Shown here: positions 4,908-43,271 of the stretch, piece after piece
Numbering within the stretch: position 1 is the first letter of the stretch
Layout: every line of letters begins with the position of its first letter
Assembly (NCBI GenBank): GCA_030395855.1
Contig: GCA_030395855.1_4325.1
Strand: one strand, 5' to 3'
Length of the DNA stretch: 44,883 nucleotides
From: a phage
Program-made: the position numbers and the translations under genes
Notes under the pieces: model-generated
What the model was told of the DNA's origin: nothing
Seen by the model: the letters and a program-made list of their open reading frames with translations, nothing else
Databases searched by the model: none

Positions 4908-5849
4908 ATGGCCATTAGATTTGATGCAGAACAAGCAAAAATCACCGCCCACCTCGAGCAGATGGGCGTAGATAAAGCAGATGCCGCTGGTATCTGGACT
5001 GTTAGCCAGCTTACCGCTGCTCTGAATCGCGCTTACGAAAAAGAATACGCAGAAAACTCAGTTGTTAATATCTTCCCTGTAACAAATGAAATTCCTGGTC
5101 ACGCGAAGTATTTCCAATACCCAGAATTTGATGGTGTTGGCATTGCTCAGATTATCGCTGATTACTCTGACGATCTGCCGCTGGTTGATGCCTTCATGAC
5201 TGAGAAACAGGGTAAAGTTTTCCGTTTCGGTAACGCATTCCTGATTTCTACCGATGAAATTAAAGCTGGCGCTGCAACTGGTCAGTCTCTGTCAACTCGC
5301 AAGCAGGAACTTGCTTTCGAAGCGCACGACAATCTGCTTGATAAGCTGGTTTGGTCTGGCTCTACTCCGCACGGTATCACTAGCGTATTCAACCATCCGA
5401 ACATCAACAACGTTGTTGCTGGTACGTGGAACTCCGCAGCTGCCGTCATGACTGATATCACCGCACTTATTGATGCAATCGAGACTTCGACCAATGGCAC
5501 TCACACCGCAACTGATATCTTGCTGCCCGCTTCCGCTCGCCGCCTGATGCAAGAGCTGGTTCCCAACACCTCTATCAGTTACGCGCAGCTGTTCGCTACC
5601 AACAACTCGGGCATCAATCTGCGTTATCTTCAGTTCCTGGATAACTACGATGGCGCAGGTGGCAAGGCTGCTCTGGCGTTTGAGAAGAATCCACTCAATA
5701 TGTCTATCGAGATTCCGGAAGCTACCAACGTTCTTCCAGGACAACCTAAGGACTTGCACTTTAAGTACCCTGTAACATCAAAAGCTACAGGTTTGATCGT
5801 TTATCGTCCACTGACGATGGCTGTAATGAAAGGCATCAAATTCTCGTGA
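4908..5849 (+). CDS. major capsid protein
   Basis: 313-aa ORF with its own promoter and flanking terminators, RBS AAGGAA; position after scaffold and decoration genes. Confidence 0.7.
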   Translation: MAIRFDAEQAKITAHLEQMGVDKADAAGIWTVSQLTAALNRAYEKEYAENSVVNIFPVTNEIPGHAKYFQYPEFDGVGIAQIIADYSDDLPLVDAFMTEKQGKVFRFGNAFLISTDEIKAGAATGQSLSTRKQELAFEAHDNLLDKLVWSGSTPHGITSVFNHPNINNVVAGTWNSAAAVMTDITALIDAIETSTNGTHTATDILLPASARRLMQELVPNTSISYAQLFATNNSGINLRYLQFLDNYDGAGGKAALAFEKNPLNMSIEIPEATNVLPGQPKDLHFKYPVTSKATGLIVYRPLTMAVMKGIKFS

Positions 5850-5855
5850 TAAATC

Positions 5856-5879
5856 GCCCTCTTCGGAGGGCTTTTTTTT
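5856..5879 (+). terminator. intrinsic terminator
   Basis: Hairpin gccctc-ttcg-gagggc followed by T8. Confidence 0.75.
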
Positions 5880-5943
5880 ACGTCTGTACCAAATGGAATT
5901 GTTGGGTTATAATCACTCAATCAGATAAACAAAGGAGACAAAA

Positions 5944-6189
5944 ATGATTCGTTTAGAGCATACTGGCGCTTGCCTTATCGTTTACAAGGGTGAGAAATAT
6001 TTACCTGGTGACACTCTCGAGGTTGATGTAATTTGCGACGGACTCAAGCGTTTAATCGCAGAGGGTAAACTCACTATTGAAGGTGACGCTAAAGCAACCA
6101 AGCAAATCGCGCAAGAAATTGCTAGCAAGAAAAAGCGCAAAGAACCGAAAACCATCTCCGAAGCTGAGACTGGCAACGAGTACAAATAA
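5944..6189 (+). CDS. hypothetical protein (promoter-gene-terminator cassette)
   Basis: 81-aa ORF, RBS AAAGGAGA, TATAAT at 5908-5913 upstream, terminator downstream. Confidence 0.55.
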   Translation: MIRLEHTGACLIVYKGEKYLPGDTLEVDVICDGLKRLIAEGKLTIEGDAKATKQIAQEIASKKKRKEPKTISEAETGNEYK

Positions 6190-8534: not shown

Positions 8535-8539
8535 TTGCA

Positions 8540-8582
8540 TAGCACTTTTTGCTAAAGCACTTATACAATCTTACTGTATAGT
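8540..8582 (+). promoter_or_regulatory. conserved promoter/operator-like element copy
   Basis: tagcactttttgcta at 8540-8554, 22-nt spacer, TATAGT at 8577-8582, leader CATCGAAACGAA. Confidence 0.6.
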
Positions 8583-8615
8583 TCATTCATCGAAACGAAA
8601 TGAGGGAATTAAGAA

Positions 8616-14974: not shown

Positions 14975-17900
14975 ATGGCACAAATGATCAAAACAAACAT
15001 GAGGCTTTGTGATATGGCTGAAGAGATTAAGATTTATGGTGCTAAAGGTGGGAGCCAGAAGCAGCATCAACCAGTGGAGCAGGAAGACAACCTGATTTCA
15101 CTAAACAAGGTTAAGGTATTGCTTGCTGTAGCTGATGGAGAGGTGGATCCAAACTTCTCAATGAAGGATTTATACCTTGCTGACGTTCCGGTGCAAAACC
15201 AGAATGGTAGCTACAACTACGAAGGTGTTCGCGCTGAGTTCCGTGCTGGTACGCAGTATCAGGACTATATCGCTGGCCTTGATGGTGCAAATTCAGAGAT
15301 TCAGGCATCCAGAGAGATCACGAACGATACCCCGTACATCATTGCGGTTAACAATACTCAGCTATCAGCAATTCGAGTAAAGCTATACTGGCCTCGACTA
15401 GTTAAGCAAGAAAGCAATGGCGACCTGAACGGAACTACATGCGAGTATGCAATTGATCTTTCTGTTAATGGCGGCGCTTATCAGGAATACACTCGAGGAG
15501 TTGCAAACGGAAAAACAACTACAGGTTACGACCGCAGCATTCGTGTAAACCTTCCGGCAGAGTTCGATAGCGCCCTGGTTCGAATCCGTAAAATTACGCC
15601 AGATTCAACAAGTAGCACACTGGTTAATGGAATGCAGATTACAACCTATCAGGAAGTAATTGATGCTAAATTCCGCTATCCGCTTACGGCTCTGGTTTAC
15701 GTTGAGTTTGGTTCTGACTTGTTCCCTAACGGAATCCCGACAATCTCCATCAAGAAGAGATGGAAACTGATTCAGGTGCCGACAAACTACAACCCGGAGA
15801 CAAGGACTTACAGCGGCACGTGGAATGGCCTGTTCAAGATGGCATGGTCAAACAACCCGGCGTGGGTTCTTTATGACCTGGTAACAAACCGACGCTATGG
15901 TCTTGATCAGAGAGAGTTGGGTGTAGAGATTGATAAATGGGGACTGTACGAAGCTGCGCAATTCTGCGACCAGATGGTGCCAGATGGTAAGGGTGGGATG
16001 GAGCCGCGCTACCTATGCGACATGGTTGTGCAGAATAAAGTTGAGGCCTACACACTAATTCGTGATATCTGTTCAATCTTCCGTGGCCTGACTTTCTATG
16101 ACGGCGAAAAGATTGGCATCGTGGTTGATAAGCCTCGCAACCCATCTTACATCTTCACCAATGATAACGTTGTAAACGGATTGTTCAGTCGAACCTTTGC
16201 CAGTGATAAAAGCCTTTACACCACGGTAAACGTTCAGTTTGATGATGTTGAGAACAACTATCAACAAGATGTAGAGCCGGTATTTGAATTAGAGGCAACT
16301 CGTCGTTTTGGATTTAACCCTGTAGATTTAACTGCGATTGGATGCACGCGAAGAAGCGAAGCAAACAGACGTGGCAGATGGCTCCTGAAAACCAACCTGA
16401 GAAACGAAACTATCAGCTTCACTACCGGTCTGGAAGGCATGATTCCGATGATTGGCGAGGTAATTGCGGTCAATGACGCAGCATGGTCGAGCAACTATCA
16501 GCTAAACCTTTCCGGTCGTATTGAATCAGTTCAGGGATTGCAGGTTTTTACCCCATTTAAAGTTGACGCAGCGCCTGGTGACAGAATTCTCCTGAACAAG
16601 CCTGACGGAAGTCCAGAAGCAAGAACTATTGCAAGCGTATCTGAGGATGGTAGGACGATTAACCTTAACACGGCTTTCAGCTTTGTAGCTCAGCCTGATA
16701 CTGTATTCGCAATAGATAAGGATAATCTCGCTCTTCAGCAATATGTGGTGACCGGGATTCAAAAAGCAGATTCTGACGGTTCTGATTCGTTCCAGTATAC
16801 AATTACCGCGGTGGAGTATGACCCTAACAAGTATGACGAGATTGACTACGGCGTTAACATTGTTGACCGCCCGACTTCAATCGTTGAACCTGACAGATTG
16901 TCGCCACCTGATAACTTAACAGTATCAAGCTACAGCAAGGTTGTTCAGGGTTTATCTGTTGAGACGATGGTAATTGGTTGGGATAAAGCGCCATACGCTA
17001 AAACATACAATGTTCAATGGAGAAAGGAAAATGGCAACTGGATTAACGTACCCAGAACGGCTAGCACAGAAGTTGATATCGAAGGCATTTACGCAGGAAT
17101 CTATGACGTTAGGGTTCGCAGCGTATCAGATACTGAAAACGTGTCTTCTTGGTCTGATATTGTAACTGTATCGCTAACTGGCAAGATTGGACGCCCTTCC
17201 GCACCTACGGTTATCACGGCATCAACTGATGAAGTATTTGGCATTCGTGTTAAATGGGGATTCCCTGATGGCTCTGGTGACACCGCTTACACTGAACTTC
17301 AGCAGGTTCCAGACAATGGTGATGGTACATACAATCCTGATAACGCGAGCTTGCTTACACTGCTTCCGTATCCGGCCTACGAATACTGGCATACGCCAAT
17401 TCAGCCCGGTAAGGTGATTTGGTATCGCGCAAGATTGATCGACAGAATCGGCAATACCTCTGATTGGTCTAATTTCGCTAGAGGCATGAGTACTGACGAC
17501 GCCAACATCATCAACAATTATATCAAGGTTGATATTGAAGGCTCGGAAGGATTCAAATATCTAGAGCAGAATGCAATTGAGAAAAACCAGGACATTCAGA
17601 ATCAAGCCGAGGCAATCATCGAGAACGCACTGGCTAATGATGGTGATGTTCGCAGAATGACAAAGGAGAACGGCAAGCGTAAGGCTGAATATGTTCAGGC
17701 AGTGAATCTCATAGCCGATGAAACTCAGGCTCGAGTAGAGGCTCTAACGGCCCTTAAAGCGCAGATAGATGATGAGGTTGTTGGTCAGATTACAACAATT
17801 GAAACAGCGCTAGCCACAGAGACAGAGGCAAGAGCGACAGCCGACACGGCTTTGAGCGCAAGGGTTGGTAATAACGAGGCGGCTCTAAACCAGAAGCTGG

Positions 17901-18400
17901 ATGCTTTCTCTAATGCCACGTCAACTGGTGTGCAGTACGGAATTAGTCTTGGTCTGAAATACAATGGTCAGACTTATTCATCGGGGATGAGCATGGAACT
18001 TGTCGGCACTGGTGATAATGTTCGTAGTCAATTCATTTTTGACGCAAACAGATTCGCAATCAGTAACGGCATTGGTTCTGGTTCCGGACAATGGCAGCTC
18101 CCTTTCGTTGTCGAGAACGGAAACGTAATCATCCAAAGCGCAGTAATCGGCGATGGCTCAATTACTAACGCTAAGATTGGTAATATAATTTCATCAAATG
18201 ATTATGTAGTAGGCTCTCAGGGATGGGCGATACTGAAAAGTGGTGCTTCAGAGTTCAATAACACAACTGTAAGGGGCAGTCTTTACGCTGACAATGGTAA
18301 CTTTGCTTTTAACGGAACCAATAACACGGTTCAGATTAACAATAACGGAATCACTGTAAACTTACCGAACGGAGGAAGAGTGGTAGTTGGAGTGTGGTAA
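14975..18400 (+). CDS. central tail fibre / host specificity protein (lambda J-like)
   Basis: 1141-aa ORF following K/I-like genes; internal VPTNYNPETRTYSGTWNG segment resembles the conserved J core. Confidence 0.8.
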   Translation: MAQMIKTNMRLCDMAEEIKIYGAKGGSQKQHQPVEQEDNLISLNKVKVLLAVADGEVDPNFSMKDLYLADVPVQNQNGSYNYEGVRAEFRAGTQYQDYIAGLDGANSEIQASREITNDTPYIIAVNNTQLSAIRVKLYWPRLVKQESNGDLNGTTCEYAIDLSVNGGAYQEYTRGVANGKTTTGYDRSIRVNLPAEFDSALVRIRKITPDSTSSTLVNGMQITTYQEVIDAKFRYPLTALVYVEFGSDLFPNGIPTISIKKRWKLIQVPTNYNPETRTYSGTWNGLFKMAWSNNPAWVLYDLVTNRRYGLDQRELGVEIDKWGLYEAAQFCDQMVPDGKGGMEPRYLCDMVVQNKVEAYTLIRDICSIFRGLTFYDGEKIGIVVDKPRNPSYIFTNDNVVNGLFSRTFASDKSLYTTVNVQFDDVENNYQQDVEPVFELEATRRFGFNPVDLTAIGCTRRSEANRRGRWLLKTNLRNETISFTTGLEGMIPMIGEVIAVNDAAWSSNYQLNLSGRIESVQGLQVFTPFKVDAAPGDRILLNKPDGSPEARTIASVSEDGRTINLNTAFSFVAQPDTVFAIDKDNLALQQYVVTGIQKADSDGSDSFQYTITAVEYDPNKYDEIDYGVNIVDRPTSIVEPDRLSPPDNLTVSSYSKVVQGLSVETMVIGWDKAPYAKTYNVQWRKENGNWINVPRTASTEVDIEGIYAGIYDVRVRSVSDTENVSSWSDIVTVSLTGKIGRPSAPTVITASTDEVFGIRVKWGFPDGSGDTAYTELQQVPDNGDGTYNPDNASLLTLLPYPAYEYWHTPIQPGKVIWYRARLIDRIGNTSDWSNFARGMSTDDANIINNYIKVDIEGSEGFKYLEQNAIEKNQDIQNQAEAIIENALANDGDVRRMTKENGKRKAEYVQAVNLIADETQARVEALTALKAQIDDEVVGQITTIETALATETEARATADTALSARVGNNEAALNQKLDAFSNATSTGVQYGISLGLKYNGQTYSSGMSMELVGTGDNVRSQFIFDANRFAISNGIGSGSGQWQLPFVVENGNVIIQSAVIGDGSITNAKIGNIISSNDYVVGSQGWAILKSGASEFNNTTVRGSLYADNGNFAFNGTNNTVQINNNGITVNLPNGGRVVVGVW

Positions 18401-18405
18401 TAAAT

Positions 18406-18434
18406 AAAGCCCCTTAATTGGGGCTTTTCTTTTA
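18406..18434. terminator. bidirectional intrinsic terminator
   Basis: Hairpin agcccc-ttaatt-ggggct flanked by an A-run upstream and T-run downstream; between convergent genes. Confidence 0.7.
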
Positions 18435-19394
18435 GTAGAAGTTTGGGATAAATGGAAGTGCCATTGATATGTTCGTGTCGAAAGGAAACTGAGCGCCTGT
18501 CTGAGTTGAGTAGTTACCTATTACAGATCCAGGAACAGCCCTAACGGAGCCTCCAGACATGCAAACACCCTTGTATCGTAAGTTGTTATACCCTCCGGTA
18601 ACTCTAGTCGTAGCGCCGCACCTAAGCAGCGGGAAGAAACCACCATTTATTGACTGATATCCATTGCTTATTTGTATAAATCCACCAAGAACGAATGGGC
18701 GGCGAACACTTGAAAAAACAATCTGACCAGAACTATTTGACATTGTGAGTCCGGGTCCAGCTGGTGGTGGTTCATTCCTGAATATCACCAATTGAACGTA
18801 AGTACTTGCCGCAACATCATCTGTACCTCCGTAGGTTATATCCCTACACCATATTGTTGATCCATCTGATTCAAGTGATACGTTTGGATTATCCCACTTG
18901 CCGAATGGTATTCCGCTAACTGGTAGCGATGCTGCACCGTTAACCTGTATACCCCCAACCCATGCTGCTGACATTAGTCTCGAGTTGCTTGATATAGCAA
19001 GGAAATCAGTTGAGTTCTCAACAAGTATTCCAGGACTTGATGAGGATGAAGCCGGTAGTATCTCAAAGCAATTCCCTGCAAAGTCAATTATTCGACCATT
19101 AGCACCGTTAAAGTTACTAAGCGTTATCCTTCCAACTCCGTCATTAACCTTTTGGAATCCATTCATATAATAAACTTCAGGTATAACATCGTAAGCATCA
19201 ACGTGAACAGCCTTTATTGGTAGACAGAAGGCCGTAGAACCAGGTGACATTGTCAATCCAAAATCCCACGAACTTGCAGGAGTTGAAAGTCCATTGGTAT
19301 TTATTGAGCCAGTCACGGCTGGTGCCCTTAATCCTGCCGTTATTTCCATCGCTGGTCTTCCGTCATTGAGGTCAATCAATATACCCTGCGGCAT
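18432..19394 (-). CDS. hypothetical Gly/Ser/Asn-rich protein (320 aa), co-transcribed with upstream lipoprotein gene
   Basis: RBS AAGGAG before ATG at 19394; TAATG stop/start overlap with the lipoprotein gene. Confidence 0.6.
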   Translation of the reverse strand: MPQGILIDLNDGRPAMEITAGLRAPAVTGSINTNGLSTPASSWDFGLTMSPGSTAFCLPIKAVHVDAYDVIPEVYYMNGFQKVNDGVGRITLSNFNGANGRIIDFAGNCFEILPASSSSSPGILVENSTDFLAISSNSRLMSAAWVGGIQVNGAASLPVSGIPFGKWDNPNVSLESDGSTIWCRDITYGGTDDVAASTYVQLVIFRNEPPPAGPGLTMSNSSGQIVFSSVRRPFVLGGFIQISNGYQSINGGFFPLLRCGATTRVTGGYNNLRYKGVCMSGGSVRAVPGSVIGNYSTQTGAQFPFDTNISMALPFIPNFY

Positions 19395-19639
19395 TATTTC
19401 CACTCCTTGCTGCCATGATCTGCAATGGAGCCACCGTAACCGCCGCCAGCTTTGCTTTCAATGCCAGCGTAGCGAATATCAACCTCACCAGCCGGAACAA
19501 CTACGCCACCCTTCCATTTAGCTACGCACACACCAATTGCTTGCGTTGCACACCAACCATCCGGGCGAGGACCGGAAGAACAACCAACTGTCATGATTAC
19601 TGCTGCGGCGATGATTGCTGATTTGATTAGGTTAGTCAT
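19394..19639 (-). CDS. small lipoprotein (82 aa), candidate Cor-like superinfection exclusion protein
   Basis: N-terminal signal peptide ending in lipobox MTVGC; RBS GAGGAA; conserved promoter element upstream on minus strand. Confidence 0.55.
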
Positions 19640-19678
19640 TTTGTATTCCTCATTAAGTTGTTTCGTTTCGATGGAGTA

Positions 19679-19722
19679 ACTATACACGCAACCAGCGTTG
19701 GAGTCTTTAGCTATTTGTGCTA
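19679..19722 (-). promoter_or_regulatory. conserved promoter/operator-like element copy (minus strand)
   Basis: Minus strand reads tagcacaaatagcta, 23-nt spacer, TATAGT, then CCATCGAAACGAA leader. Confidence 0.55.
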
Positions 19723-19818
19723 TTGCATACGCGTAACCGATGTAACTCGATGTATACAATCTCATCCGCGGGAAATGATATACGATCTGTTACGCCAATT
19801 TACGCATTAGTTACATTA

Positions 19819-19882
19819 AAATATCTATATATATCAACCTTTTACTCTTATTATTATTATATATATATTACTGTGTATATCA
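19819..19882. repeat. AT-rich repeat block A (AATATCTATATATATCAACCTTTTACT + (TTA)n + TATATAT...TACTGTGTATA)
   Basis: Shares a 27-bp identical core and overall architecture with block B at 37846-37912; lies in a divergent intergenic region. Confidence 0.7.
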
Positions 19883-20183
19883 TGTAACTACTTCTATAGA
19901 GTGTTCCGGTTATAAATTTCTAACATGTACATTTATACAGTATTTAATCACACGCACACCAATGCACCCTCCGCTAGAAATGATATACACGATATACACG
20001 CTGGTTACATTGAGCTATAGCAGGGCTGAGGCTTTAAAAAACGTAACTAGTGGCAATACCTACAGGTAATTACAAGGATTCACGCGTAAACTTGAATCAG
20101 CGATTGGCAAAACCAATTGGACTGGTTACGGTGCCGAATATATAGTTAACCAATCGAAAGCAAACAACCAGAGAGATACAGAA

Positions 20184-20378
20184 ATGACCTACTACATTAT
20201 CAAAGAGAAAAACAACGCACTGTTCGGTGACTGCTACTTTGGTGGCACTGCTGGATACACCACAGATAAGAGTGAAGCTGACAGATTCGAGACTAAAGAA
20301 GAAGCCCGAGATGTGCTGACTGGTTACTTCACTGAAGAAGATTTGAAGTCTGTTAAAGTAGTTAAGGTAAAGGGGTGA
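20184..20378 (+). CDS. hypothetical protein (64 aa), first gene of rightward early operon
   Basis: RBS AGAGAGA before ATG 20184. Confidence 0.5.
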   Translation: MTYYIIKEKNNALFGDCYFGGTAGYTTDKSEADRFETKEEARDVLTGYFTEEDLKSVKVVKVKG

Positions 20379-20381
20379 GTT

Positions 20382-21347
20382 ATGAGCTTTAAGGTTTTTA
20401 CAAGGGAAGAGCTATCAAACTCGGAGTACCACGCTGAGACCGACCACATATCTGGTAGCTCACTTGTCGAGATTATCCAGGGTTCCCCGGCAAAGTGGAA
20501 ATTTAAGCAGCGCAACAATAATAGCAAAGCTCTTAAGTTTGGCACACTGAGCCACACGATGATTCTCGAGCAAGATGTATTCGAAAAGGAGTATTTGCGA
20601 GCTACAGACCTTGATGCAATTGAAGGCTTAATTACAAGTCAGACTGGATTATCGGCAGCGTTGAAAAAAGTTGGTGTAGCTGGGACGTCAGGTAAGGGCT
20701 ATAGCGAGCTCGTAGAGATGATGTATCGCTCTGGTGAGGATTGGGATGTTAAGTGGCTAATTGAGCAGCAGGAGAGCGCTCAGGCGCTTGCTGAGGGCAA
20801 GGAGCTAGTTAGCGCAGCAGACTATGACAAAGTGGTAGCGATGCGCGAGGTTCTTTGCAACATTCCGGCATATGATGCAATTGTGAACAGCGAGACGGCG
20901 CAGAAAGAGCTGTCAATCTTCGGTGAGATTCTAGGTGTTGGCGTTAAGATTCGAATCGACCATGTTGATGTTGTTGATGGTGTCGTCAAGCTGACGGATT
21001 ACAAAACGACCGCAGACGCAAGCCCAGAAGGATTCGGTAAGTCTGCATTCTCTCACGGATACCTTGCAAAAATGGCTCTTCAGCGCGATCTGTTTGTGAA
21101 GGCATTCAACGAGAAGCGAAAGGTTGTTGTAGGGTTGTTGGCGCAGGAGAAGGTAGAGCCATATTTACCAATGCTGTACACCTTGACGGACGAACAGCTA
21201 CGAATTGGCCGCTTGCAGTATCTTGAGGCGCTCGCCACTTACAAGAAGTGTAAGGAGCTAGATATCTGGCCTGGATACTCGAATGGCATTACAGAGCAAG
21301 AGTTACTAGTTCCTGAATGGGCCATTAAACAATACAAAGAAATCTAA
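20382..21347 (+). CDS. putative PD-(D/E)XK-type exonuclease (recombination exonuclease)
   Basis: 321-aa ORF with IDHVDVV...KLTDYKT motif region (D...D/E-x-K-like); sits upstream of Erf and SSB genes. Confidence 0.55.
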   Translation: MSFKVFTREELSNSEYHAETDHISGSSLVEIIQGSPAKWKFKQRNNNSKALKFGTLSHTMILEQDVFEKEYLRATDLDAIEGLITSQTGLSAALKKVGVAGTSGKGYSELVEMMYRSGEDWDVKWLIEQQESAQALAEGKELVSAADYDKVVAMREVLCNIPAYDAIVNSETAQKELSIFGEILGVGVKIRIDHVDVVDGVVKLTDYKTTADASPEGFGKSAFSHGYLAKMALQRDLFVKAFNEKRKVVVGLLAQEKVEPYLPMLYTLTDEQLRIGRLQYLEALATYKKCKELDIWPGYSNGITEQELLVPEWAIKQYKEI

Positions 21348-21348
21348 A

Positions 21349-21391
21349 TAGCACGAATCGCTAAAGACAAAATTAAAAGGTGGGGTATGAT
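21349..21391 (+). promoter_or_regulatory. conserved promoter/operator-like element copy
   Basis: tagcacgaatcgcta at 21349-21363, 22-nt spacer, TATGAT at 21386-21391 within the GGGGTA/TACCCC inverted repeat. Confidence 0.6.
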
Positions 21392-21420
21392 TACCCCATC
21401 AACAACGAACGAGGTTAAAG

Positions 21421-25154: not shown

Positions 25155-25178
25155 TGTGTAGAGTCTCCATTTGTAAAA

Positions 25179-25193
25179 TAGCACGAATTGCTA
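25179..25193. promoter_or_regulatory. palindromic operator-like site (TAGCACGAATTGCTA) without the usual -10/leader, just upstream of tailspike start
   Basis: Exact copy of the palindrome 25 nt upstream of the tailspike ATG, adjacent to the minus-strand terminator. Confidence 0.5.
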
Positions 25194-25218
25194 AAGTGGA
25201 TTGTAGCATCTTTATGAC

Positions 25219-26168: not shown

Positions 26169-26193
26169 AGTTACCTCCATAAACAATAAAGGC

Positions 26194-26236
26194 ACTATAC
26201 ACAATGTATAGCGCCACTGTTTATCAATTCGTGCTA
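26194..26236 (-). promoter_or_regulatory. conserved promoter/operator-like element copy (minus strand) driving primase
   Basis: Minus strand reads tagcacgaattgata, 22-nt spacer, TATAGT. Confidence 0.55.
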
Positions 26237-26716
26237 TTTCCCTTGCTCTTTAGCTTTTCGTGCTGCCTCGTTAGCGGCCTTAATCTTGCGCCATGATCGA
26301 CACTCTGGCTTGGTGGCTAATTCAGCCTCAGTAACAACACGCAGCATGTGACGCTTTTTGCAACGCAGAGTTAGCGGCTTCCCGTTACCGTCGAATTGCA
26401 AATCTGGTCGGCAGAATGTAGCGCGAAAACCCTCCCCAGTTCGTTTGTAGTAGTTGTGCGACAACTGAGCACCTCGCGCAGAAATCATACCGCGCTTAAA
26501 CCATTCCTCTACAGCCTGTGGTGTTACCTTTAATTGCTTTGCCATATTTGCCTTTGTGCCGAAGAAATCAAGAACTATCTCCAGGCGTGCCCGTAACCCG
26601 GCTCTTACTTCATCTTTTAAAACGTAGTAGCCTGAAGGTCGTTTTCGCTGCTTTTTATCTTCAGTGCGGATGGTTCCGTTATTGCCGTTAATGGTTCTCT
26701 TGTCGACTGTATTCAT
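26234..26716 (-). CDS. HTH DNA-binding protein (Cro/YdaS-like putative transcriptional regulator)
   Basis: Segment MAKQLKVTPQAVEEWFKRG resembles a helix-turn-helix; basic termini; RBS GAGGT; divergent from helicase gene. Confidence 0.55.
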   Translation of the reverse strand: MNTVDKRTINGNNGTIRTEDKKQRKRPSGYYVLKDEVRAGLRARLEIVLDFFGTKANMAKQLKVTPQAVEEWFKRGMISARGAQLSHNYYKRTGEGFRATFCRPDLQFDGNGKPLTLRCKKRHMLRVVTEAELATKPECRSWRKIKAANEAARKAKEQGK

Positions 26717-28812: not shown

Positions 28813-29228
28813 ACATTACAGACAAAGTTGATTACATTGAGTTTTACTCTGGACCTGTTAAGTCGTGTCCGAAAGAGGATGACGAACAAATCTTTTGCTC
28901 TGATTGGGTTAAGTATAACTATCCAGATATGGTATTTTTCCACTGCGTAAATGAGGGTAAGAAAACCATTGGTCAAGCAAGGAAGGACCAGGCTAAAGGA
29001 TTGCTCAAAGGGGTCTCGGACTGTTTATTCCTGATACCTGAATCGCTTAGAGGCAGTTATCCATTTGGAGCCATAGAGCTAAAGAGGGCAGGAAAAACTC
29101 AGGCTAGCCCGGTCAGCGATGAGCAGAGGTCCTTCCTTAAAAGCGTAAGGGAATCAGGAGGTTTCGCCGCCGTGGCCTACGGACGCGAGGGCTTTCTAGC
29201 AGCATTCAAAGAAATGATTTCAAAATAG
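28809..29228 (+). CDS. VRR-NUC domain nuclease
   Basis: DCLFL...GAIELK...SDEQ segment resembling the VRR-NUC PD-(D/E)XK core; ATGA overlap with helicase stop. Confidence 0.6.
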   Translation: MNITDKVDYIEFYSGPVKSCPKEDDEQIFCSDWVKYNYPDMVFFHCVNEGKKTIGQARKDQAKGLLKGVSDCLFLIPESLRGSYPFGAIELKRAGKTQASPVSDEQRSFLKSVRESGGFAAVAYGREGFLAAFKEMISK

Positions 29229-29268
29229 CACGAATTGCTAAAGACGATTTTAAAAGATGGGGTATAGT
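29226..29268 (+). promoter_or_regulatory. conserved promoter/operator-like element copy (canonical)
   Basis: tagcacgaattgcta 29226-29240, 22-nt spacer, TATAGT 29263-29268, leader CCATCGAAATGAA, then RBS and ATG 29305. Confidence 0.65.
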
Positions 29269-29304
29269 TACTCCATCGAAATGAAACAAAGAGAGAGAAA
29301 CAAA

Positions 29305-30426: not shown

Positions 30427-31557
30427 ATGGCAACTGCAAAAATAACCAACGAAGAGCTGCGCGAAGAACTGGCAAGCGGCATGACCAACAAGGCAATAGC
30501 AGAGAAGTACGGAATGAACATTCGCAACGTTGAATTGCGTCGTAGTAAGCTGGCTAAGAGTGGAGAATTGCACGGAAACCCAGGCATCAAGAAGCTAGTT
30601 CCTGACGGTTATTTGGTCAAAGGTACTTCAACCATGATTGACGCGGAAGGAAACGAGAAGATCCGTTGGGTTAAGACCTCAATTGATAATGAGCGCCTTG
30701 ATGTTCTGATGGAGAAAGCTCGCGAGGCATTCTGCTCTGATTTGCCAAAGGCAGATGTAGTCACCCACTCAGGTAATGAAGTTAACTCTGAATTGATGAC
30801 TCTTTATCCGATTTTCGATATCCATATCGGTATGATGGCACATCGTCATGAGTCTGGTGAGAATTATGACACGAACACGGCAGAGGAATTGATGGGATCA
30901 TATTTTGACCATGCAATTTCTGTATCTCCAGCCTCAGAGAAAGCAGTAATTTTAGTTGGCGGCGACTTCCTTCACTCAGACGGACTTGAGGCTGTAACCC
31001 CAGCAAGCGGACACTGCCTTGATCAAGATAGCCGATATGCTAAGTTAGTTTATGTGGCAATTCGCTCAATTCGTGGCGCGGTAGAGAAGATGCTTAAGAA
31101 ACACAAGGAAGTAGAGATTCAAATCATAGAGGGAAATCACGACCAGAGTGGTATGATTTGGCTCCGTGCGGCAATGGCTGCATTTTATGAAAACGAGAAT
31201 CGCGTGTTTGTTGATACTAGTCCGGCAATCATGCACAAGACGCGATTTGGCTCAACATTACTTGGTTACACGCACGGCCACACAATGAAGAAAGCTGAGG
31301 GTCGACTCGCGGCAATGGCGACAGACTACCGCAAAGACTTTGGTGAATGTGAATTCGTTTACTGCCATTCCGGCCATTTCCATCATGCAACCGTTACAGA
31401 ATGCACTCTTGGTATTGATGAGGTGCACCCTGCACTTGCCAGTAAGGATGCATATGCAGCACGGGGAGGGTGGCGATCATACCGACAGGCGGCTGCAATT
31501 GTTTACCACAAGAATTTTGGCGAGGTTGGTAGACACATTTATCGTCCTGGTATGTAA
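30427..31557 (+). CDS. calcineurin-like metallophosphoesterase with N-terminal HTH-like domain
   Basis: Motifs DIHIG, GGDFLHSD, GNHD, GHTH, GHFH match the metallophosphoesterase signature; N-terminal TNKAIAEKYGMNIRNVELRR is HTH-like. Confidence 0.7.
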   Translation: MATAKITNEELREELASGMTNKAIAEKYGMNIRNVELRRSKLAKSGELHGNPGIKKLVPDGYLVKGTSTMIDAEGNEKIRWVKTSIDNERLDVLMEKAREAFCSDLPKADVVTHSGNEVNSELMTLYPIFDIHIGMMAHRHESGENYDTNTAEELMGSYFDHAISVSPASEKAVILVGGDFLHSDGLEAVTPASGHCLDQDSRYAKLVYVAIRSIRGAVEKMLKKHKEVEIQIIEGNHDQSGMIWLRAAMAAFYENENRVFVDTSPAIMHKTRFGSTLLGYTHGHTMKKAEGRLAAMATDYRKDFGECEFVYCHSGHFHHATVTECTLGIDEVHPALASKDAYAARGGWRSYRQAAAIVYHKNFGEVGRHIYRPGM

Positions 31558-31558
31558 A

Positions 31559-31601
31559 TAGCACTTTTTGCCTAAAACATGCCGTAGAAATGCGGCATAA
31601 T
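31559..31601 (+). promoter_or_regulatory. conserved promoter/operator-like element copy
   Basis: tagcactttttgcct, 22-nt spacer, CATAAT, leader AAATCGAAACGAG. Confidence 0.55.
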
Positions 31602-31631
31602 CACCAAATCGAAACGAGATGAGGAATTGTA

Positions 31632-32107: not shown

Positions 32108-32662
32108 ATGACTAAATTATTTATCCTTAACGGACCGGCTGGAGTTGGCAAGGACACTATCGCAGATATTATGCTCGAGTTGGGTGTTGTTGATGGGAAA
32201 GTTTCATTCAAGTCACCAATGTTCGATGTAGCCAGGGGGATGCTATCAAAGGGTGAATTTGATTGGTTTATTGAGAACTACAACAACCGAGACGAGAAAG
32301 AAAAGCATCAAGAGATACTTGGCGGTAAAAGCATTCGAGAATTCATGATTTGGATTAGCGAGTCTGTAATGAAGCCAGTCTTTGGTGATGATGTCTTCGG
32401 TAAAAGGCTCGCCCAGTCACTTGGTGATGGTTGCTACATTTGCGCTGACGGTGGATTTACTAGCGAGATTAAGACACTGGTCGACGCTGGTGTTGAGGTC
32501 ACGTTAATTAGATTGCATAGGGAAGGGTACACATTTGATGGCGATAGTCGCTCATACATTCACGGGGTGTGCGCAAGAGAAATTGATGTTCGTGTTGTTG
32601 ATTGTGATATTAATGAAACATCAGCATTGGTAAGGCACGTAATAAATAGCACGAATTTCTAA
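32108..32662 (+). CDS. P-loop kinase, dNMP-kinase-like (paralog 1)
   Basis: Walker A GPAGVGKDT near N-terminus; about 45 percent identical by eye to the ORF at 39543..40160. Confidence 0.6.
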   Translation: MTKLFILNGPAGVGKDTIADIMLELGVVDGKVSFKSPMFDVARGMLSKGEFDWFIENYNNRDEKEKHQEILGGKSIREFMIWISESVMKPVFGDDVFGKRLAQSLGDGCYICADGGFTSEIKTLVDAGVEVTLIRLHREGYTFDGDSRSYIHGVCAREIDVRVVDCDINETSALVRHVINSTNF

Positions 32663-32688
32663 AACACAAATCAAAAGATGGGGTATAT
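32646..32688 (+). promoter_or_regulatory. conserved promoter/operator-like element copy
   Basis: tagcacgaatttcta, 22-nt spacer, TATATT; the element encodes the last codons and stop of the kinase gene. Confidence 0.6.
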
Positions 32689-32721
32689 TTACTCCATCGA
32701 AACAAACGAGAGTATACAAAT

Positions 32722-36835: not shown

Positions 36836-36871
36836 TTTGATTGCCTTTGCATGTTTCGTTTCGATGAGATG

Positions 36872-36914
36872 AATATACAGGAAAAGCCCCGAAGGGCCTT
36901 AGCAATTCGTGCTA
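36872..36914 (-). promoter_or_regulatory. conserved promoter/operator-like element copy (minus strand)
   Basis: Minus strand reads tagcacgaattgcta, 22-nt spacer containing a gccc-cgaa-gggc hairpin, TATATT, leader CATCGAAACGAA. Confidence 0.55.
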
Positions 36915-37063
36915 TTACGTGCCTGTTCTATCGCCTTGAGCATAATTTCGTGACTTTCTAGCAAGTCCTCGCGAAACCAATCCCCGCATGGCCAACCCTT
37001 ACCGCTGTAAGCTGCAATGGTGCAAAGATCGTAATAGTTGATATCTGATGGCAATAGCATCAT
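36899..37063 (-). CDS. small hypothetical protein (54 aa)
   Basis: Not in ORF track; RBS GAGGTG; ATGA coupling to upstream gene; its stop TAA lies inside the conserved palindrome. Confidence 0.35.
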   Translation of the reverse strand: MMLLPSDINYYDLCTIAAYSGKGWPCGDWFREDLLESHEIMLKAIEQARNSTNC

Positions 37064-37488: not shown

Positions 37489-37515
37489 ATCTATACCCTC
37501 GTTGTTGATGAGCTA

Positions 37516-37559
37516 ACTATATCCTCACTAACTCCTAATGTCTTTAGCAAAAAGTGCTA
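37516..37559 (-). promoter_or_regulatory. conserved promoter/operator-like element copy (minus strand)
   Basis: Minus strand reads tagcactttttgcta, 23-nt spacer, TATAGT. Confidence 0.55.
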
Positions 37560-37845
37560 TTCGTTAGATTTATGGATTGATGCAGATATTGCAATGATTC
37601 ATATGATTATTGCACATACAGCAATATTGCTTCCGATGCAATGATGTTTTTGATTGTTGCGAAAAGTGAAATGAAGTGGGGAGTGAGTGAATGAAAGATT
37701 GATGGACTACCATACAAGTTGATTTTTACCAATCTATGGGAGCCTCACGGATATACGCGTATCCTCCGTATACTCATTGTCGTCACAAAAGTTAGTGACC
37801 ACTAACCTACGTTTTTACGCGATATATACACACGATATACAATAT

Positions 37846-38738: not shown

Positions 38739-38826
38739 TAGACTACCATACCACTTGAGGTACAGTGAGGAGGTTGAGTCGGCAATTGAGTTCTGCCGGA
38801 AAGCTAAATCACTCCTGAGTGGTGAA

Positions 38827-38869
38827 TAGCACGAATTGCTAAACAATAAATCGGGTAGTCGGTTATGAT
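38827..38869 (+). promoter_or_regulatory. conserved promoter/operator-like element copy
   Basis: tagcacgaattgcta, 22-nt spacer, TATGAT, leader CCCCATCGACAACGAA. Confidence 0.6.
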
Positions 38870-38893
38870 TACCCCATCGACAACGAAGAGGAA

Positions 38894-39100: not shown

Positions 39101-39360
39101 AACGTTTAATGACATGCATGACCATTATTGCGGCAATGATTGCTCTTACTGGTTGCGAGAAGGCACCAGAGGTTCAGATTCAGTCAGGTGAATTCAATGT
39201 GGAGCGTCTATTCACAGTGGATGGATGTACCGCCTACAGATTCCGAGATAGCGATAGAGCCATCTACTACACAAATTGCCATGGCAGTACGCAGAGTGAG
39301 TACAGGTCCGGCAAGGTCATGAAGAAAGAAACAGTTCAGACAGATCGCACGAATTGGTAA
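39097..39360 (+). CDS. putative lipoprotein (87 aa)
   Basis: Signal peptide MKRLMTCMTIIAAMIALTGC with lipobox LTGC; ATGA overlap with upstream gene. Confidence 0.55.
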   Translation: MKRLMTCMTIIAAMIALTGCEKAPEVQIQSGEFNVERLFTVDGCTAYRFRDSDRAIYYTNCHGSTQSEYRSGKVMKKETVQTDRTNW

Positions 39361-39542
39361 AAGGGGGTTCATCATGACTGGTATAATCCCCAGCATCAAC
39401 CACATGAATGGAAGTTAAGTGACGATATACGAACATAAATTCAGTAGCAGGGGTATTGATATGCTCCTGCACTATATAGACGAAAAATACTCAAAGCTCA
39501 TGCTTAAGACGCATGGCGGCACAATAACGAGGATTAACATAA

Positions 39543-40160
39543 ATGGCTAAAATCATCATTCTCAACGGTCCGGCTTCGGTTGGCAAAGACACTATCGGTA
39601 ACGCGCTTGCTAAAGATTACAATTGCATCCCGACGAGCTTTAAGATTCCTATGTTTGAGATCGCAGCGTCAATCCTGGGCGCTCGGGCGTTCAGCAAATT
39701 CATCACCGCTTATGATGATCGAGATCAGAAAGAGATGCCTCATGATTTTCTCGGTGGGAAAACCTGCCGTGAGTTCATGATCTGGATTAGCGAGTCGGTG
39801 GTCAAGCCGCTATTTGGCAATCAGCAGTTCGGTAAGCTGACGAGCGAGCGCATCCAGCTTTGTGACGAGGGATTTAGCTTTGTTTGCACTGATGGCGGTT
39901 TTCCTGATGAGGTTATCCGTCTGGTGGAAGACGGCCACTATGTTACCGTTGTGCGCCTATTTATGGATGGCAAGACCTTCGATGGAGATAGTCGTGATTA
40001 TATCCGCATCAAGGAATCGCATTTCCCTGATTATAAGCAATATAACGAGCATGACGTGCATCTGTTGAATGGTGATATTGACGGCGGCGTCATGGCAGTG
40101 GTTCGCGCCTGCGGTATCCGTCCTGCAATCGACGAGTGGGCCGACAATATTCCCTGGTAA
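39543..40160 (+). CDS. P-loop kinase, dNMP-kinase-like (paralog 2)
   Basis: Walker A GPASVGKDT; shared FMIWISESV and TFDGDSR blocks with the ORF at 32108..32662. Confidence 0.6.
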   Translation: MAKIIILNGPASVGKDTIGNALAKDYNCIPTSFKIPMFEIAASILGARAFSKFITAYDDRDQKEMPHDFLGGKTCREFMIWISESVVKPLFGNQQFGKLTSERIQLCDEGFSFVCTDGGFPDEVIRLVEDGHYVTVVRLFMDGKTFDGDSRDYIRIKESHFPDYKQYNEHDVHLLNGDIDGGVMAVVRACGIRPAIDEWADNIPW

Positions 40161-40161
40161 A

Positions 40162-40204
40162 TAGCACGAATTGCCAAACCCGCTCCGGCGGGTTTTGTTA
40201 TAGT
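40162..40204 (+). promoter_or_regulatory. conserved promoter/operator-like element copy with terminator hairpin in its spacer
   Basis: tagcacgaattgcca, spacer containing cccgc-tccg-gcggg + TTTTGTT, TATAGT at 40199-40204. Confidence 0.6.
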
Positions 40205-40232
40205 TAGTTAACACCAAACGAGAGGAAAGAAA

Positions 40233-40552: not shown

Positions 40553-40686
40553 TTTACATCCACACATACTACACTGGCAAGTTTAATAGCGTTAAGCACG
40601 CCATTGTTCACGATAGCTACGATAGCGCAAAGGCTCAATGGTTGGTTCTTGGCGGCGATATTAATTCATATAGAATCGCTAAATAG
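40549..40686 (+). CDS. small hypothetical protein (45 aa)
   Basis: Not in ORF track; ATGA coupling; stop TAG embedded in the next conserved element. Confidence 0.3.
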   Translation: MIYIHTYYTGKFNSVKHAIVHDSYDSAKAQWLVLGGDINSYRIAK

Positions 40687-40727
40687 CACGAATTGCTAAA
40701 ACAGTATTGGGGGTAATTTGTTATAGT
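40684..40727 (+). promoter_or_regulatory. conserved promoter/operator-like element copy
   Basis: tagcacgaattgcta, 23-nt spacer, TATAGT inside a GGGGGTAA/TTACCCC inverted repeat, leader CCCCATCGAAACGAA. Confidence 0.6.
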
Positions 40728-40757
40728 TACCCCATCGAAACGAACCAGGAATAAGAA

Positions 40758-41633: not shown

Positions 41634-41763
41634 ATATGTAATAGCGTGCGAGAGACTCGTCTTCGATATGAAGACTTTCCACTGGTTCATCATTAAGGAT
41701 TTAGTTAAGCCTTATAAGAAAGGCGTTGCGCCAGAGGCTTTTGTTAAGTCATTCTATAAATAG
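41620..41763 (+). CDS. small hypothetical protein (47 aa)
   Basis: RBS GAGGTGG before ATG 41620; stop TAG embedded in the next conserved element. Confidence 0.35.
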   Translation: MRLTEYVIACERLVFDMKTFHWFIIKDLVKPYKKGVAPEAFVKSFYK

Positions 41764-41803
41764 CACGAATTGCTAAATGCAGTCGCCACGGATGGCATAT
41801 AAT
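41761..41803 (+). promoter_or_regulatory. conserved promoter/operator-like element copy
   Basis: tagcacgaattgcta, 22-nt spacer, TATAAT. Confidence 0.6.
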
Positions 41804-41833
41804 TACCACATCAACACAACGAGAGATTGAGAT

Positions 41834-43004: not shown

Positions 43005-43271
43005 ATGATGACATTAAAAGCAGTGTACAAAGACGGCAGCGAGGCAGTATTCGAGGTTAAGAACTACGGATATAGTGCGCCTAACGATAAAATTAGCTAC
43101 CACGTCGCAGATGGTGATGCTGGAGATATTCCTATCAGTGGCGATGTTGTTGTTGTTTACGCAATGAACTCAGCGGGTAGCACTATCGGTAAGTACTACA
43201 ATCACAGTATAGAAAGAGCAAAAGCAGAGCAAACATCAAGCCCCTTAATTGGGGCTTTTTTACGTCTGTAA
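43005..43271 (+). CDS. hypothetical protein (88 aa)
   Basis: RBS GAAGGAGA before ATG 43005; reading frame runs through the downstream terminator hairpin. Confidence 0.5.
   Translation: MMTLKAVYKDGSEAVFEVKNYGYSAPNDKISYHVADGDAGDIPISGDVVVVYAMNSAGSTIGKYYNHSIERAKAEQTSSPLIGAFLRL
43239..43261 (+). terminator. intrinsic terminator
   Basis: Hairpin agcccc-ttaatt-ggggct (same sequence as the 18409 hairpin) followed by T6. Confidence 0.7.

Follow-up and report, generated by a model that had tools for sequence, protein, structure and literature searches.

For small siphoviruses, the receptor is predicted by the locus downstream of gpJ (PMC8594841; bioRxiv 10.64898/2026.04.02.716166). An LptD-type "bona fide RBP locus" in this position has been described for Rtp (Rtp44/Rtp45) and for the corresponding gene pairs of AugustePiccard (Bas01), Oekolampad (Bas18), and OzMSK (Maffei 2021; Black 2025; Dunbar 2025). 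Cryo-EM placed RBP_Oeko on the extracellular face of LptDE (PMC12685063). Rtp45 was found on the periplasmic face of LptDE, with loop EL4 of LptD displaced by up to 20 Å (PMC12685063). On the basis of the structure, this displacement prevents docking of the receptor-binding protein (PMC12685063). No in vivo exclusion assay for Rtp45 was found in the literature examined, and the mechanism rests on structure; AlphaFold models of Rtp45 and of the Rtp45–LptDE complex were reported to be wrong (Dunbar et al., PMC12685063). OzMSK fails on two lptD loop-deletion mutants, and Black et al. sort the loop sequences into three groups, whose binding may differ somewhat (PMC13035648).

The window analyzed here, the whole of a 44,883-nucleotide stretch of phage DNA (contig GCA_030395855.1_4325.1), derives from a coliphage of the Braunvirinae (Drexlerviridae, Rtp-like). 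Immediately past a J-like tail gene, the minus strand carries a promoter-like module, a lipoprotein gene, a gene for a 320-residue protein, and a terminator-like hairpin, in that order, and the open reading frames of both genes are well beyond chance. A preliminary description of this DNA had placed an antisense two-gene operon past the J-like gene, which is indeed present. Sequence comparison and analogy lead us to regard the whole cassette, with high confidence, as an LptD-type host-recognition unit of the phage. Both genes correspond to the already described LptD host-recognition cassette of T1/Rtp-like coliphages, real but ordinary, and nothing in the mechanism of the cassette is new. Its features, in the numbering of the window, are:

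14975–18400, plus strand: gene for a J-like central tail fiber/tip attachment protein of 1141 aa (phrog_31; Pfam FNIII-A_GpJ, Phage_Tail_Tip, and Phage-tail_3)
18406–18427, both strands: bidirectional intrinsic-terminator-like hairpin, AAAGCCCCTTAATTGGGGCTTT, whose 8-bp stem includes 5 GC pairs, with T-runs on either strand
18432–19394, minus strand: gene for a predicted receptor-binding protein of the LptD-specific type (Rtp44/RBP_Oeko/OzMSK_038 family), 320 aa plus stop (DUF6453; PDB 9RPT_C)
19394–19639, minus strand: gene for a very likely superinfection-exclusion lipoprotein of the Rtp45 family, 81 aa plus stop (PF24052; phrog_4281; PDB 9RPS_D)
19403–19408, minus strand: Shine–Dalgarno sequence AAGGAG, read from the sequence 8 nt ahead of the start codon of the 320-residue protein and contained in the lipoprotein gene's 3′ end
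19659–19724, minus strand: promoter/operator-like module repeated across the phage, AATAGCACAAATAGCTAAAG ... TGTATAGTTACTCCATCGAAACGAAAC; its TATAGT at 19684–19679 resembles a −10 element

The 320-residue protein is rich in Gly, Ser, and Asn, as noted earlier (together 30.3%), but the accompanying statements that it has no recognizable domain and is unexplained do not survive homology searching. It matches Pfam DUF6453 (PF20051) at 1.1e-139 (score 465 bits, cut-off 25; residues 4–297 on profile positions 1–291) and phrog_1265 at 7.8e-130. Over residues 1–320, it is 43% identical to RBP_Oeko of Oekolampad (PDB 9RPT_C, E 1e-66) and 39% identical to Rtp44, and it differs from OzMSK_038 by 10 substitutions (97% identity). 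Within this family, more than 30% identity at essentially full coverage to LptD-specific members matched LptD specificity (bioRxiv 10.64898/2026.04.02.716166), and all three comparisons (Oeko 43%, Rtp44 39%, OzMSK_038 97%) fall in that range. A profile built from 52 DUF6453 sequences retrieved 9RPT from the PDB at 2.2e-138; searched for a solved Kuravirus (SU10) homologue, the same profile found 9RPT alone. In the structure prediction proposed in the preliminary description as a check, the AF2 model is all-beta (pLDDT 86.1, pTM 0.86), and its sole significant Foldseek match in the PDB is 9RPT_C (E 1.3e-21, target-normalized TM 0.90; next match E 0.38).

Neither a signal peptide nor a membrane segment was detected in this protein (maximum Kyte–Doolittle 19-residue mean 1.1), and no hydrophobic region was found at its N-terminus. 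The "membrane protein/moron" label of PHROG 1265 was rejected for it, given the missing hydrophobic segment and a model that is a soluble beta-sandwich. The earlier suggestion of a second exclusion or host-modifying factor is not supported, given the lack of such segments, the extracellular binding of LptD by a homologue, and the place of the gene directly after J in the tail operon of prophage-type relatives. Of the three original guesses, structural protein comes closest, although the protein would be a compact beta-sandwich at the tail tip and not a fiber. By sequence and predicted fold, it is assigned to the Rtp44/RBP_Oeko family as an LptD receptor-binding protein. Virion proteomics of AHP24 and Rogue1, two relatives for which the major gel bands were analyzed, does not list the DUF6453 protein; a low-copy tip protein would be expected to be missed in this way, and the result speaks neither for nor against its presence in virions.

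The upstream gene encodes a lipoprotein with the lipobox MTVGC, as first described, although its length is corrected from 82 to 81 residues. The lipoprotein prediction that had been called for is positive: the lipobox fits a PS51257-type rule with predicted processing at Cys20, giving a predicted mature form of 62 aa, and Ser-Ser at +2/+3, of which the +2 Ser is compatible with predicted outer-membrane sorting. The protein matches PF24052 (Phage_lipoprotein; E 4.5e-38; score 129.5 bits, cut-off 27; residues 1–80 on profile positions 1–80), the sole match in a Pfam scan at E ≤ 0.1, as well as phrog_4281 (1.4e-35). It is closest to Rtp45 (PDB 9RPS chain D; phmmer E 2.8e-35), to which it is identical at 61 of 81 positions by BLASTP (75%). 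The lipobox Cys20 is present together with Cys30 and Cys38, which correspond to the Rtp45 disulfide pair. When all PDB chains were searched by phmmer at E ≤ 1, Rtp45 came up along with weak, unrelated matches, and no Llp chain was among them. The ribosome site is GAGGA, 7 nt before the ATG at 19639. A 123-aa open reading frame starting at 19765 was considered as the lipoprotein gene and rejected: the PF24052 profile and Rtp45 both align from the ATG at 19639, and the Shine–Dalgarno sequence at 19639 and the position of the promoter module inside the longer frame also rule it out. Most probably, the protein serves in superinfection exclusion by blocking the receptor that the phage itself uses. 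Receptor-blocking exclusion had been proposed for it and is favored by the identity to Rtp45; the Cor-type assignment made at the same time is not, as the similarity to T1 Cor amounts to a 25-residue signal peptide and the target would be LptD, not FhuA. Membership in the Cor family was rejected because nothing beyond the signal peptide is similar.

The conserved element noted ahead of the operon in the preliminary description is real. It is a module of ~60 nt, AATAGCACGAATTGCTAAA-N19-22-(G)TATAGTTACYCCATCGAAACGA, located 25–30 nt upstream of ATGs, and 16 copies were read in the window on both strands, each ahead of an ATG. A search with the 17-nt core gave 18 matches against 4.5 expected, a count reached by 0 of 100 shuffles. 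Copies also precede replication and recombination genes. The copy at 19724–19659 (minus strand) directly precedes the lipoprotein gene, a position at which the module is kept in Rtp, OzMSK, AugustePiccard, and the relatives L004, L005, L007, and L015, and it would serve as the promoter driving the two-gene operon. A sigma-70 consensus scan of positions 18300–20300 yielded 6 promoter-like sites against 5.3 expected. The junction between the two genes reads GAAATAATGCCG; the sequence confirms the reported TAATG overlap of the lipoprotein stop and the start of the 320-residue protein (19392–19396), in which TAA and ATG share one base. Together with the internal Shine–Dalgarno sequence, this overlap indicates probable translational coupling of the lipoprotein and receptor-binding protein genes.

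The J-like protein presumably carries the receptor-binding protein. Its overall identity to Rtp43 is 95.5%, and its divergence from the J proteins of Rtp (Rtp43) and Bas01 is concentrated immediately ahead of a C-terminal motif. This motif comprises the last ~40 residues (LYADNGNFAFNGTNNTVQINNNGITVNLPNGGRVVVGVW) and is common to the DUF6453-carrying phages examined. It co-occurs with DUF6453, is kept even in prophage-type J proteins with just 30–43% overall identity, and is not conserved in T1 gp33. The receptor-binding protein may dock at this motif. The J and receptor-binding protein genes converge, with 31 nt between their stops, and both are served by the hairpin at 18406–18427, of which a 96% identical copy lies at 43235–43259.

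The order J, receptor-binding protein, lipoprotein, recE is also found in Rtp (rtp43–45), OzMSK, and AugustePiccard. A J gene adjoins the DUF6453 gene in all 80 related loci, and a lipoprotein homologue abuts the start of the receptor-binding protein gene in 13 of 13 Drexlerviridae-type loci. At the 67 prophage-type loci, DUF6453 directly follows J on the same strand in the tail operon, and in such relatives it lies between J and a side-fiber-like gene. Adjacency of the lipoprotein and receptor-binding protein genes is not universal, since prophage-type and Gordonclarkvirinae genomes separate them. DNA identity between the window and Rtp falls from ~90% to ~50% only over the 3′ end of J and the receptor-binding protein gene, a pattern that a swapped specificity allele would produce. 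Homologues of both proteins also occur, at separate loci, in Gordonclarkvirinae podophages, an indication that LptD may be used by these phages too.

In T1, the corresponding antisense position behind the J locus is occupied by cor, and this would fit a Cor-type lipoprotein (phi80/N15/T1) that inactivates FhuA, accompanied by a nonvirion 320-residue moron "membrane" protein acting in exclusion or host modification. The label "moron ... membrane protein" of PHROG 1265, copied in many GenBank records, points the same way, as do the common transcript and a promoter module found also ahead of replication and recombination genes. Yet the resemblance to T1 Cor is that of the signal peptide alone (25 residues), whereas the lipoprotein shares 75% identity with an LptDE binder, Rtp45. 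The 320-residue protein lacks the signal peptide or hydrophobic segment of a membrane protein (maximum KD19 1.1), its homologue attaches to LptD's extracellular face, and prophage-type relatives keep DUF6453 in the tail operon between J and the side-fiber-like gene. The sequence has already largely refuted this explanation, to which we attach almost no credence.

A cassette of the LptD family could also hold a divergent allele whose receptor is now a different outer-membrane protein, or one that requires an additional receptor besides LptD. AugustePiccard requires NupG plus LptD, dual-receptor phenotypes have been reported in Braunvirinae, and identity to Rtp44 and RBP_Oeko is just 39–43%, with the differences in variable parts of the alignment. 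Either reading is nevertheless very improbable: two lptD loop mutants block OzMSK, whose protein is 97% identical (10 substitutions), and LptD specificity went with family membership at more than 30% identity and full coverage (bioRxiv 10.64898/2026.04.02.716166). In the NupG-associated segment, the window J follows Rtp43 and not Bas01, which is 26–52% identical there, and a NupG-type dual receptor via J is not predicted. There is a small chance that the OzMSK/Rogue1-type allele pair engages LptDE differently, for instance through other loops or a closed state, as might be read from the 39–43% identity of the receptor-binding protein to Rtp44/RBP_Oeko and a 5-residue Gly-rich insertion in the lipoprotein. 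In that event, cross-exclusion among LptD phages would be nonreciprocal and the host would have a different escape route.

In the LptD host-recognition cassette that we favor, a single transcript would start at the copy of the standard promoter module and end at the terminator common with J, and both products would target LptDE, the LPS translocon of the outer membrane, approaching it from opposite sides. Translation would be coupled through the TAATG overlap and internal Shine–Dalgarno sequence, and receptor masking would therefore be made together with the receptor-binding protein. The latter would be synthesized in the cytoplasm and then, as co-conservation suggests, attach noncovalently to the conserved J C-terminus. 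On a new cell, its distal loops would enter the extracellular mouth of LptD, and this docking would trigger irreversible adsorption and DNA delivery, as shown for homologues. The lipoprotein would undergo Sec/LspA processing and lipidation at Cys20. Given Ser rather than Asp at +2, established lipoprotein rules would place it in the inner leaflet of the outer membrane. There it would bind the periplasmic side of LptDE and push a hairpin up the lumen, as structurally shown for the 75% identical Rtp45. With EL4 displaced, the receptor-binding proteins of the window phage and of related phages would be unable to dock; superinfecting phages would be excluded, and progeny would not be wasted on lysed-cell debris. 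For the window phage, we infer LptD dependence, lipoprotein processing, exclusion, and virion incorporation by analogy with these relatives.

The annotation predicts LptD, an essential and conserved protein, as the terminal receptor. Hosts with a deletion of lptD loop 11 should be resistant, and cross-exclusion with other LptD phages is expected. Public records still widely mislabel both genes ("membrane protein", "hypothetical protein", "Cor"), and correct labels would be useful. Wider value lies in the occurrence of both protein families in Gordonclarkvirinae podophages and in the conserved J C-terminal motif.

Among known systems, Cor of phi80, N15, and T1 resembles the window lipoprotein in being small and encoded antisense just past the J locus, with T1 cor in the same slot, and both are presumed to inactivate the receptor of their own phage. 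Cor is a positional and functional analogue only: BLASTP similarity to T1 Cor is limited to residues 1–25 (the signal peptide), and the mature parts are unrelated. T1 also differs in its partner genes, orf31/32, which lie on the plus strand, and in its receptor. A functional likeness is also offered by T5 pb5 (oad) and Llp, according to PMC12685063 and PMC9586334. As proposed for the window pair, one partner is a monomeric tip protein that attaches to the outside of an outer-membrane beta-barrel; the other, Llp, is a small lipoprotein that binds the barrel from the periplasm, alters its extracellular loops, and blocks binding. The FhuA–Llp complex has been solved and is in the PDB (PMC9586334). 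Llp differs in targeting FhuA rather than LptD and is unrelated in sequence (no Llp chain by phmmer against the PDB at E ≤ 1), and Rtp45 acts by physical displacement of EL4 as opposed to long-range allostery (Dunbar et al., PMC12685063). Some features set the window apart among the Rtp, Bas01, Bas18, and OzMSK pairs. Its receptor-binding protein belongs to the OzMSK/Rogue1/JK06 allele type, with just 39% identity to Rtp44 and 43% to RBP_Oeko, the lipoprotein carries near its C-terminus a 5-residue Gly-rich insertion (SKAGGGYGG) compared with Rtp45, and the window is without the upstream methyltransferase insertion found in both OzMSK and Bas01. The window otherwise shares with these four pairs the gene order, orientation, and overlap, with J convergent with the receptor-binding protein gene and the lipoprotein gene immediately upstream of it, as well as the combination of DUF6453 with PF24052, the promoter module, and the flanking genes (J; recE/erf/ssb).

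Past the J-like central tail fibre gene (J), the window carries an antisense two-gene cassette of the Rtp44/Rtp45 (LptD) type, an already known kind named here for the receptor-binding protein (RBP) and lipoprotein of coliphage Rtp; LptD belongs to the host outer-membrane LPS translocon, LptDE. The layout read from the sequence, including the lipobox and the TAATG overlap, is that of the preliminary description, apart from the lipoprotein length, put there at 82 aa.

14975..18400, plus strand: J-like gene (open reading frame and family matches)
18280-18397: J C-terminal motif (LYADNGNFAFNGTNNTVQINNNGITVNLPNGGRVVVGVW), J residues ~1102-1141
18406-18427: bidirectional terminator-like hairpin, 3' of the J gene
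stop end 18432, minus strand: 320-aa ORF, its ATG overlapped by the lipoprotein TAA (TAATG)
ATG 19639 to TAA 19394, minus strand: lipoprotein ORF, 81 aa

By sequence rule the lipoprotein possesses a lipobox with Cys20, followed by Ser-Ser at +2/+3, which bears out its earlier classification. AAGGAG lies 8 nt 5' of the ATG of the 320-aa ORF, whose product is indeed Gly/Ser/Asn-rich (G+S+N = 30.3%). The order J (+), RBP (-), lipoprotein (-), promoter module, recE-erf-ssb (+) is common to the window, Rtp, OzMSK, and AugustePiccard (Bas01). The divergent lipoprotein operon and the plus-strand recombination genes are separated by a 545-nt AT-rich intergenic region (19640-20183) with a short tandem GTGTATATC repeat at about 19985-20002. 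A DNA methylase lies on a 758-nt insertion at the equivalent point in OzMSK, where AugustePiccard has a Dcm-like methyltransferase and three further genes; the window lacks all of these. The window ends (1-85 and 44799-44883) form an exact 85-nt direct repeat, so the window probably represents a whole genome of ~44.8 kb, the repeat reflecting either terminal redundancy or an overlap left by assembly.

The window phage is a Drexlerviridae coliphage, with best DNA matches to Veterinaerplatzvirus T145P1 (94%), OzMSK/MSK (91%), and ACG-M12. Profile searches placed the lipoprotein in Pfam PF24052 ("Phage lipoprotein family", 4.5e-38) and phrog_4281, and the 320-aa protein, previously thought to lack a recognisable domain, in Pfam DUF6453 (1.1e-139) and phrog_1265. 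Among solved structures, the lipoprotein had one significant match, Rtp45 (PDB 9RPS chain D, E 2.8e-35; 75% identity, Cys30 and Cys38 kept). For the 320-aa protein, only chain C of 9RPT, 9RPW, and 9RQI was significant (E 1e-66), which is the Oekolampad RBP (RBP_Oeko) bound to LptDE (PDB). Once considered unexplained, this protein is very probably an RBP, 43% identical to RBP_Oeko over its full length, 39% to Rtp44, and 97% to OzMSK_038 (10 substitutions). Its AlphaFold2 model, built with 52 homologues as input, is all-beta (pLDDT 86.1), and Foldseek against the PDB returned 9RPT_C as the sole significant match (E 1.3e-21, next E 0.38; target-normalised TM 0.90). As the protein has no hydrophobic segment, its PHROG/GenBank label "membrane protein, moron" finds no support.

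At the "bona fide RBP loci" that immediately follow gpJ in small siphoviruses, the allele present agrees with the terminal receptor, and the rtp44/rtp45-type allele corresponds to LptD, backed by resistant lptD mutants (Maffei et al. 2021, PMC8594841). Two lptD loop-deletion strains could not be infected by OzMSK, whose OzMSK_038 is annotated as a putative LptD-binding RBP (Black et al. 2025, PMC13035648). A 2026 preprint (bioRxiv 10.64898/2026.04.02.716166) found that the LptD family at the locus downstream of gpJ tracks LptD specificity, using a criterion of >30% identity with full coverage. Structurally, RBP_Oeko inserts into the extracellular mouth of open LptDE, and Rtp45 occupies a periplasmic site flanked by LptE and LptM (Dunbar et al. 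2025, PMC12685063); the Rtp45 hairpin runs up the lumen and shifts the LptD loop EL4 by as much as 20 A, a state incompatible with RBP binding (PMC12685063). The literature searched gave no in vivo exclusion phenotype for a protein of the Rtp45 type, nor a report of the RBP in virions of close relatives, whose proteomics covered major bands.

The conserved element said to drive the operon is a ~60-nt promoter/operator-like module: a near-palindromic box (TAGCAcgaatTGCTA) is followed, after a spacer that varies over 19-22 nt, by (G)TATAGTTACYCCATCGAAACGA, with a -10-like TATAGT and then TTACYCCATCGAAACGA. Sixteen copies were read in the window on both strands, every one 25-30 nt upstream of an ATG (minus-strand copies marked):

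684-742, 8537-8595, 19659-19724(-), 21346-21404, 25175-25205, 26189-26239(-), 29223-29281, 31556-31614
32644-32702, 36854-36916(-), 37499-37561(-), 38824-38882, 39341-39371, 40159-40217, 40680-40744, 41758-41816

A window search with the 17-nt core gave 18 matches versus 4.5 expected. The copy at 19724..19659 (-) lies directly upstream of the lipoprotein gene, and the same module precedes the homologous genes of Rtp, OzMSK, AugustePiccard, and several IMG/VR relatives. At ~22 nt, TTGCTA and TATAGT stand farther apart than a canonical sigma-70 -35/-10 pair allows. In Rtp, Wietzorrek (2006) reportedly described ~10 conserved inverted repeats at which the putative regulator Rtp52 was proposed to act.

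The C-terminal ~40 residues of J (LYAxxGxFAFNGxNNTVxINxNGxTVNLxxGGRVVVG) are kept in all DUF6453 phages examined, including prophage-type J only 30-43% identical overall, and are absent from T1 gp33; this distribution makes the motif a plausible RBP docking site. The ~50 residues before it co-vary with RBP subtype, the window being 58-62% identical to Rtp43 (the J of Rtp) and Bas01 there, and most other J >95% versus Rtp43. DNA identity to Rtp is about 90% on both flanks, about 50% across 18200-19400 (J 3' end and RBP gene), and 79% in the lipoprotein gene. Such a drop is the hallmark of a specificity allele swapped within an otherwise conserved backbone. In a segment that diverges strongly in Bas01 and that has been linked to NupG, the window J resembles Rtp43, not Bas01; a second receptor by way of J is therefore not predicted.

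Gene order was compared across 80 DUF6453-encoding loci from IMG/VR, which fell into two groups. A lipoprotein homologue abuts the RBP start in all 13 Drexlerviridae-type loci (lipobox ORF called in 12, with a 1-nt overlap or 2-nt gap). In the 67 prophage-type loci (L017-L083; 44-47% identity), the DUF6453 gene (match at ~5001-5957) lies on the same strand as J, directly after it and before a side-tail-fibre-like gene (MSAGTLTLTNNSA...), followed in loci inspected by integrase- or umuC-like genes, as judged by eye. This placement next to J speaks for a role of DUF6453 as part of the tail. Because none of these 67 loci has an adjacent lipoprotein and Cronobacter phage ESP2949-1 carries its Rtp45-like gene about 12 kb away, the antisense operon is specific to virulent Drexlerviridae/Dhillonvirus-type lineages, which shows RBP-lipoprotein linkage to be a feature of virulent lineages. 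DUF6453 proteins 30-32% identical (P0112, P0115, P0116) are also common in Enterobacter cloacae complex assemblies (a cluster of 1656 members, with contigs as long as 4.9 Mb), and a Pseudomonas marginalis plasmid carries one; these bacterial-assembly genes presumably lie in prophages, and the family therefore extends beyond E. coli phages.

Both families also occur, at separate loci, in Gordonclarkvirinae podophages (Kuravirus, Nieuwekanaalvirus, and relatives), including many ~75-78 kb Escherichia podophages. SkaterBoy_Bas90 gene 0015 (Bas90_0015, L003:3902-4933) encodes a DUF6453/PF20051 protein (84.6 bits; ~25% identity to the RBP of the window) between a transglycosylase gene and the gene for a 322-aa "tail fiber", judged from gene order to be the likely counterpart of the SU10 gp18 tail needle. 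The positional equivalent of Bas90_0015 in SU10 is gp19, a protein absent from the discussion in the SU10 structure paper. The Rtp45-like lipoprotein lies at a distant locus among small early genes, as in EP335 ORF106 (L085:2468-2749; PF24052, 123.5 bits, RPDGWC...GVC motif kept). The presence of both families suggests LptD as the terminal receptor of Gordonclarkvirinae, with Rtp45-type exclusion. The literature searched does not connect these phages with LptD, and the BASEL follow-up paper assumes that their short fibres bind LPS core.

By analogy with the homologues, the RBP would bind extracellular LptD, and the lipoprotein would bind periplasmic LptDE and remodel EL4. A single transcript would run from the promoter module to the terminator shared with J, with the two genes translationally coupled; after Lgt/LspA processing, Lol would deliver the lipoprotein (Ser at +2) to the outer membrane, and the RBP may dock on the J C-terminus. 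Superinfecting LptD phages would thereby be excluded and progeny protected from debris. The Cor-type exclusion proposed earlier thus holds in kind, as receptor masking, but not in family or receptor, which are Rtp45 and LptD. Membership in the Cor family was rejected, as likeness to T1 Cor is confined to the signal peptide; Cor of T1/phi80 is a positional analogue, T1 cor occupying the same antisense slot. T5 pb5/Llp, with no sequence kinship to the cassette in the lipoprotein search of solved structures, works alike on FhuA.
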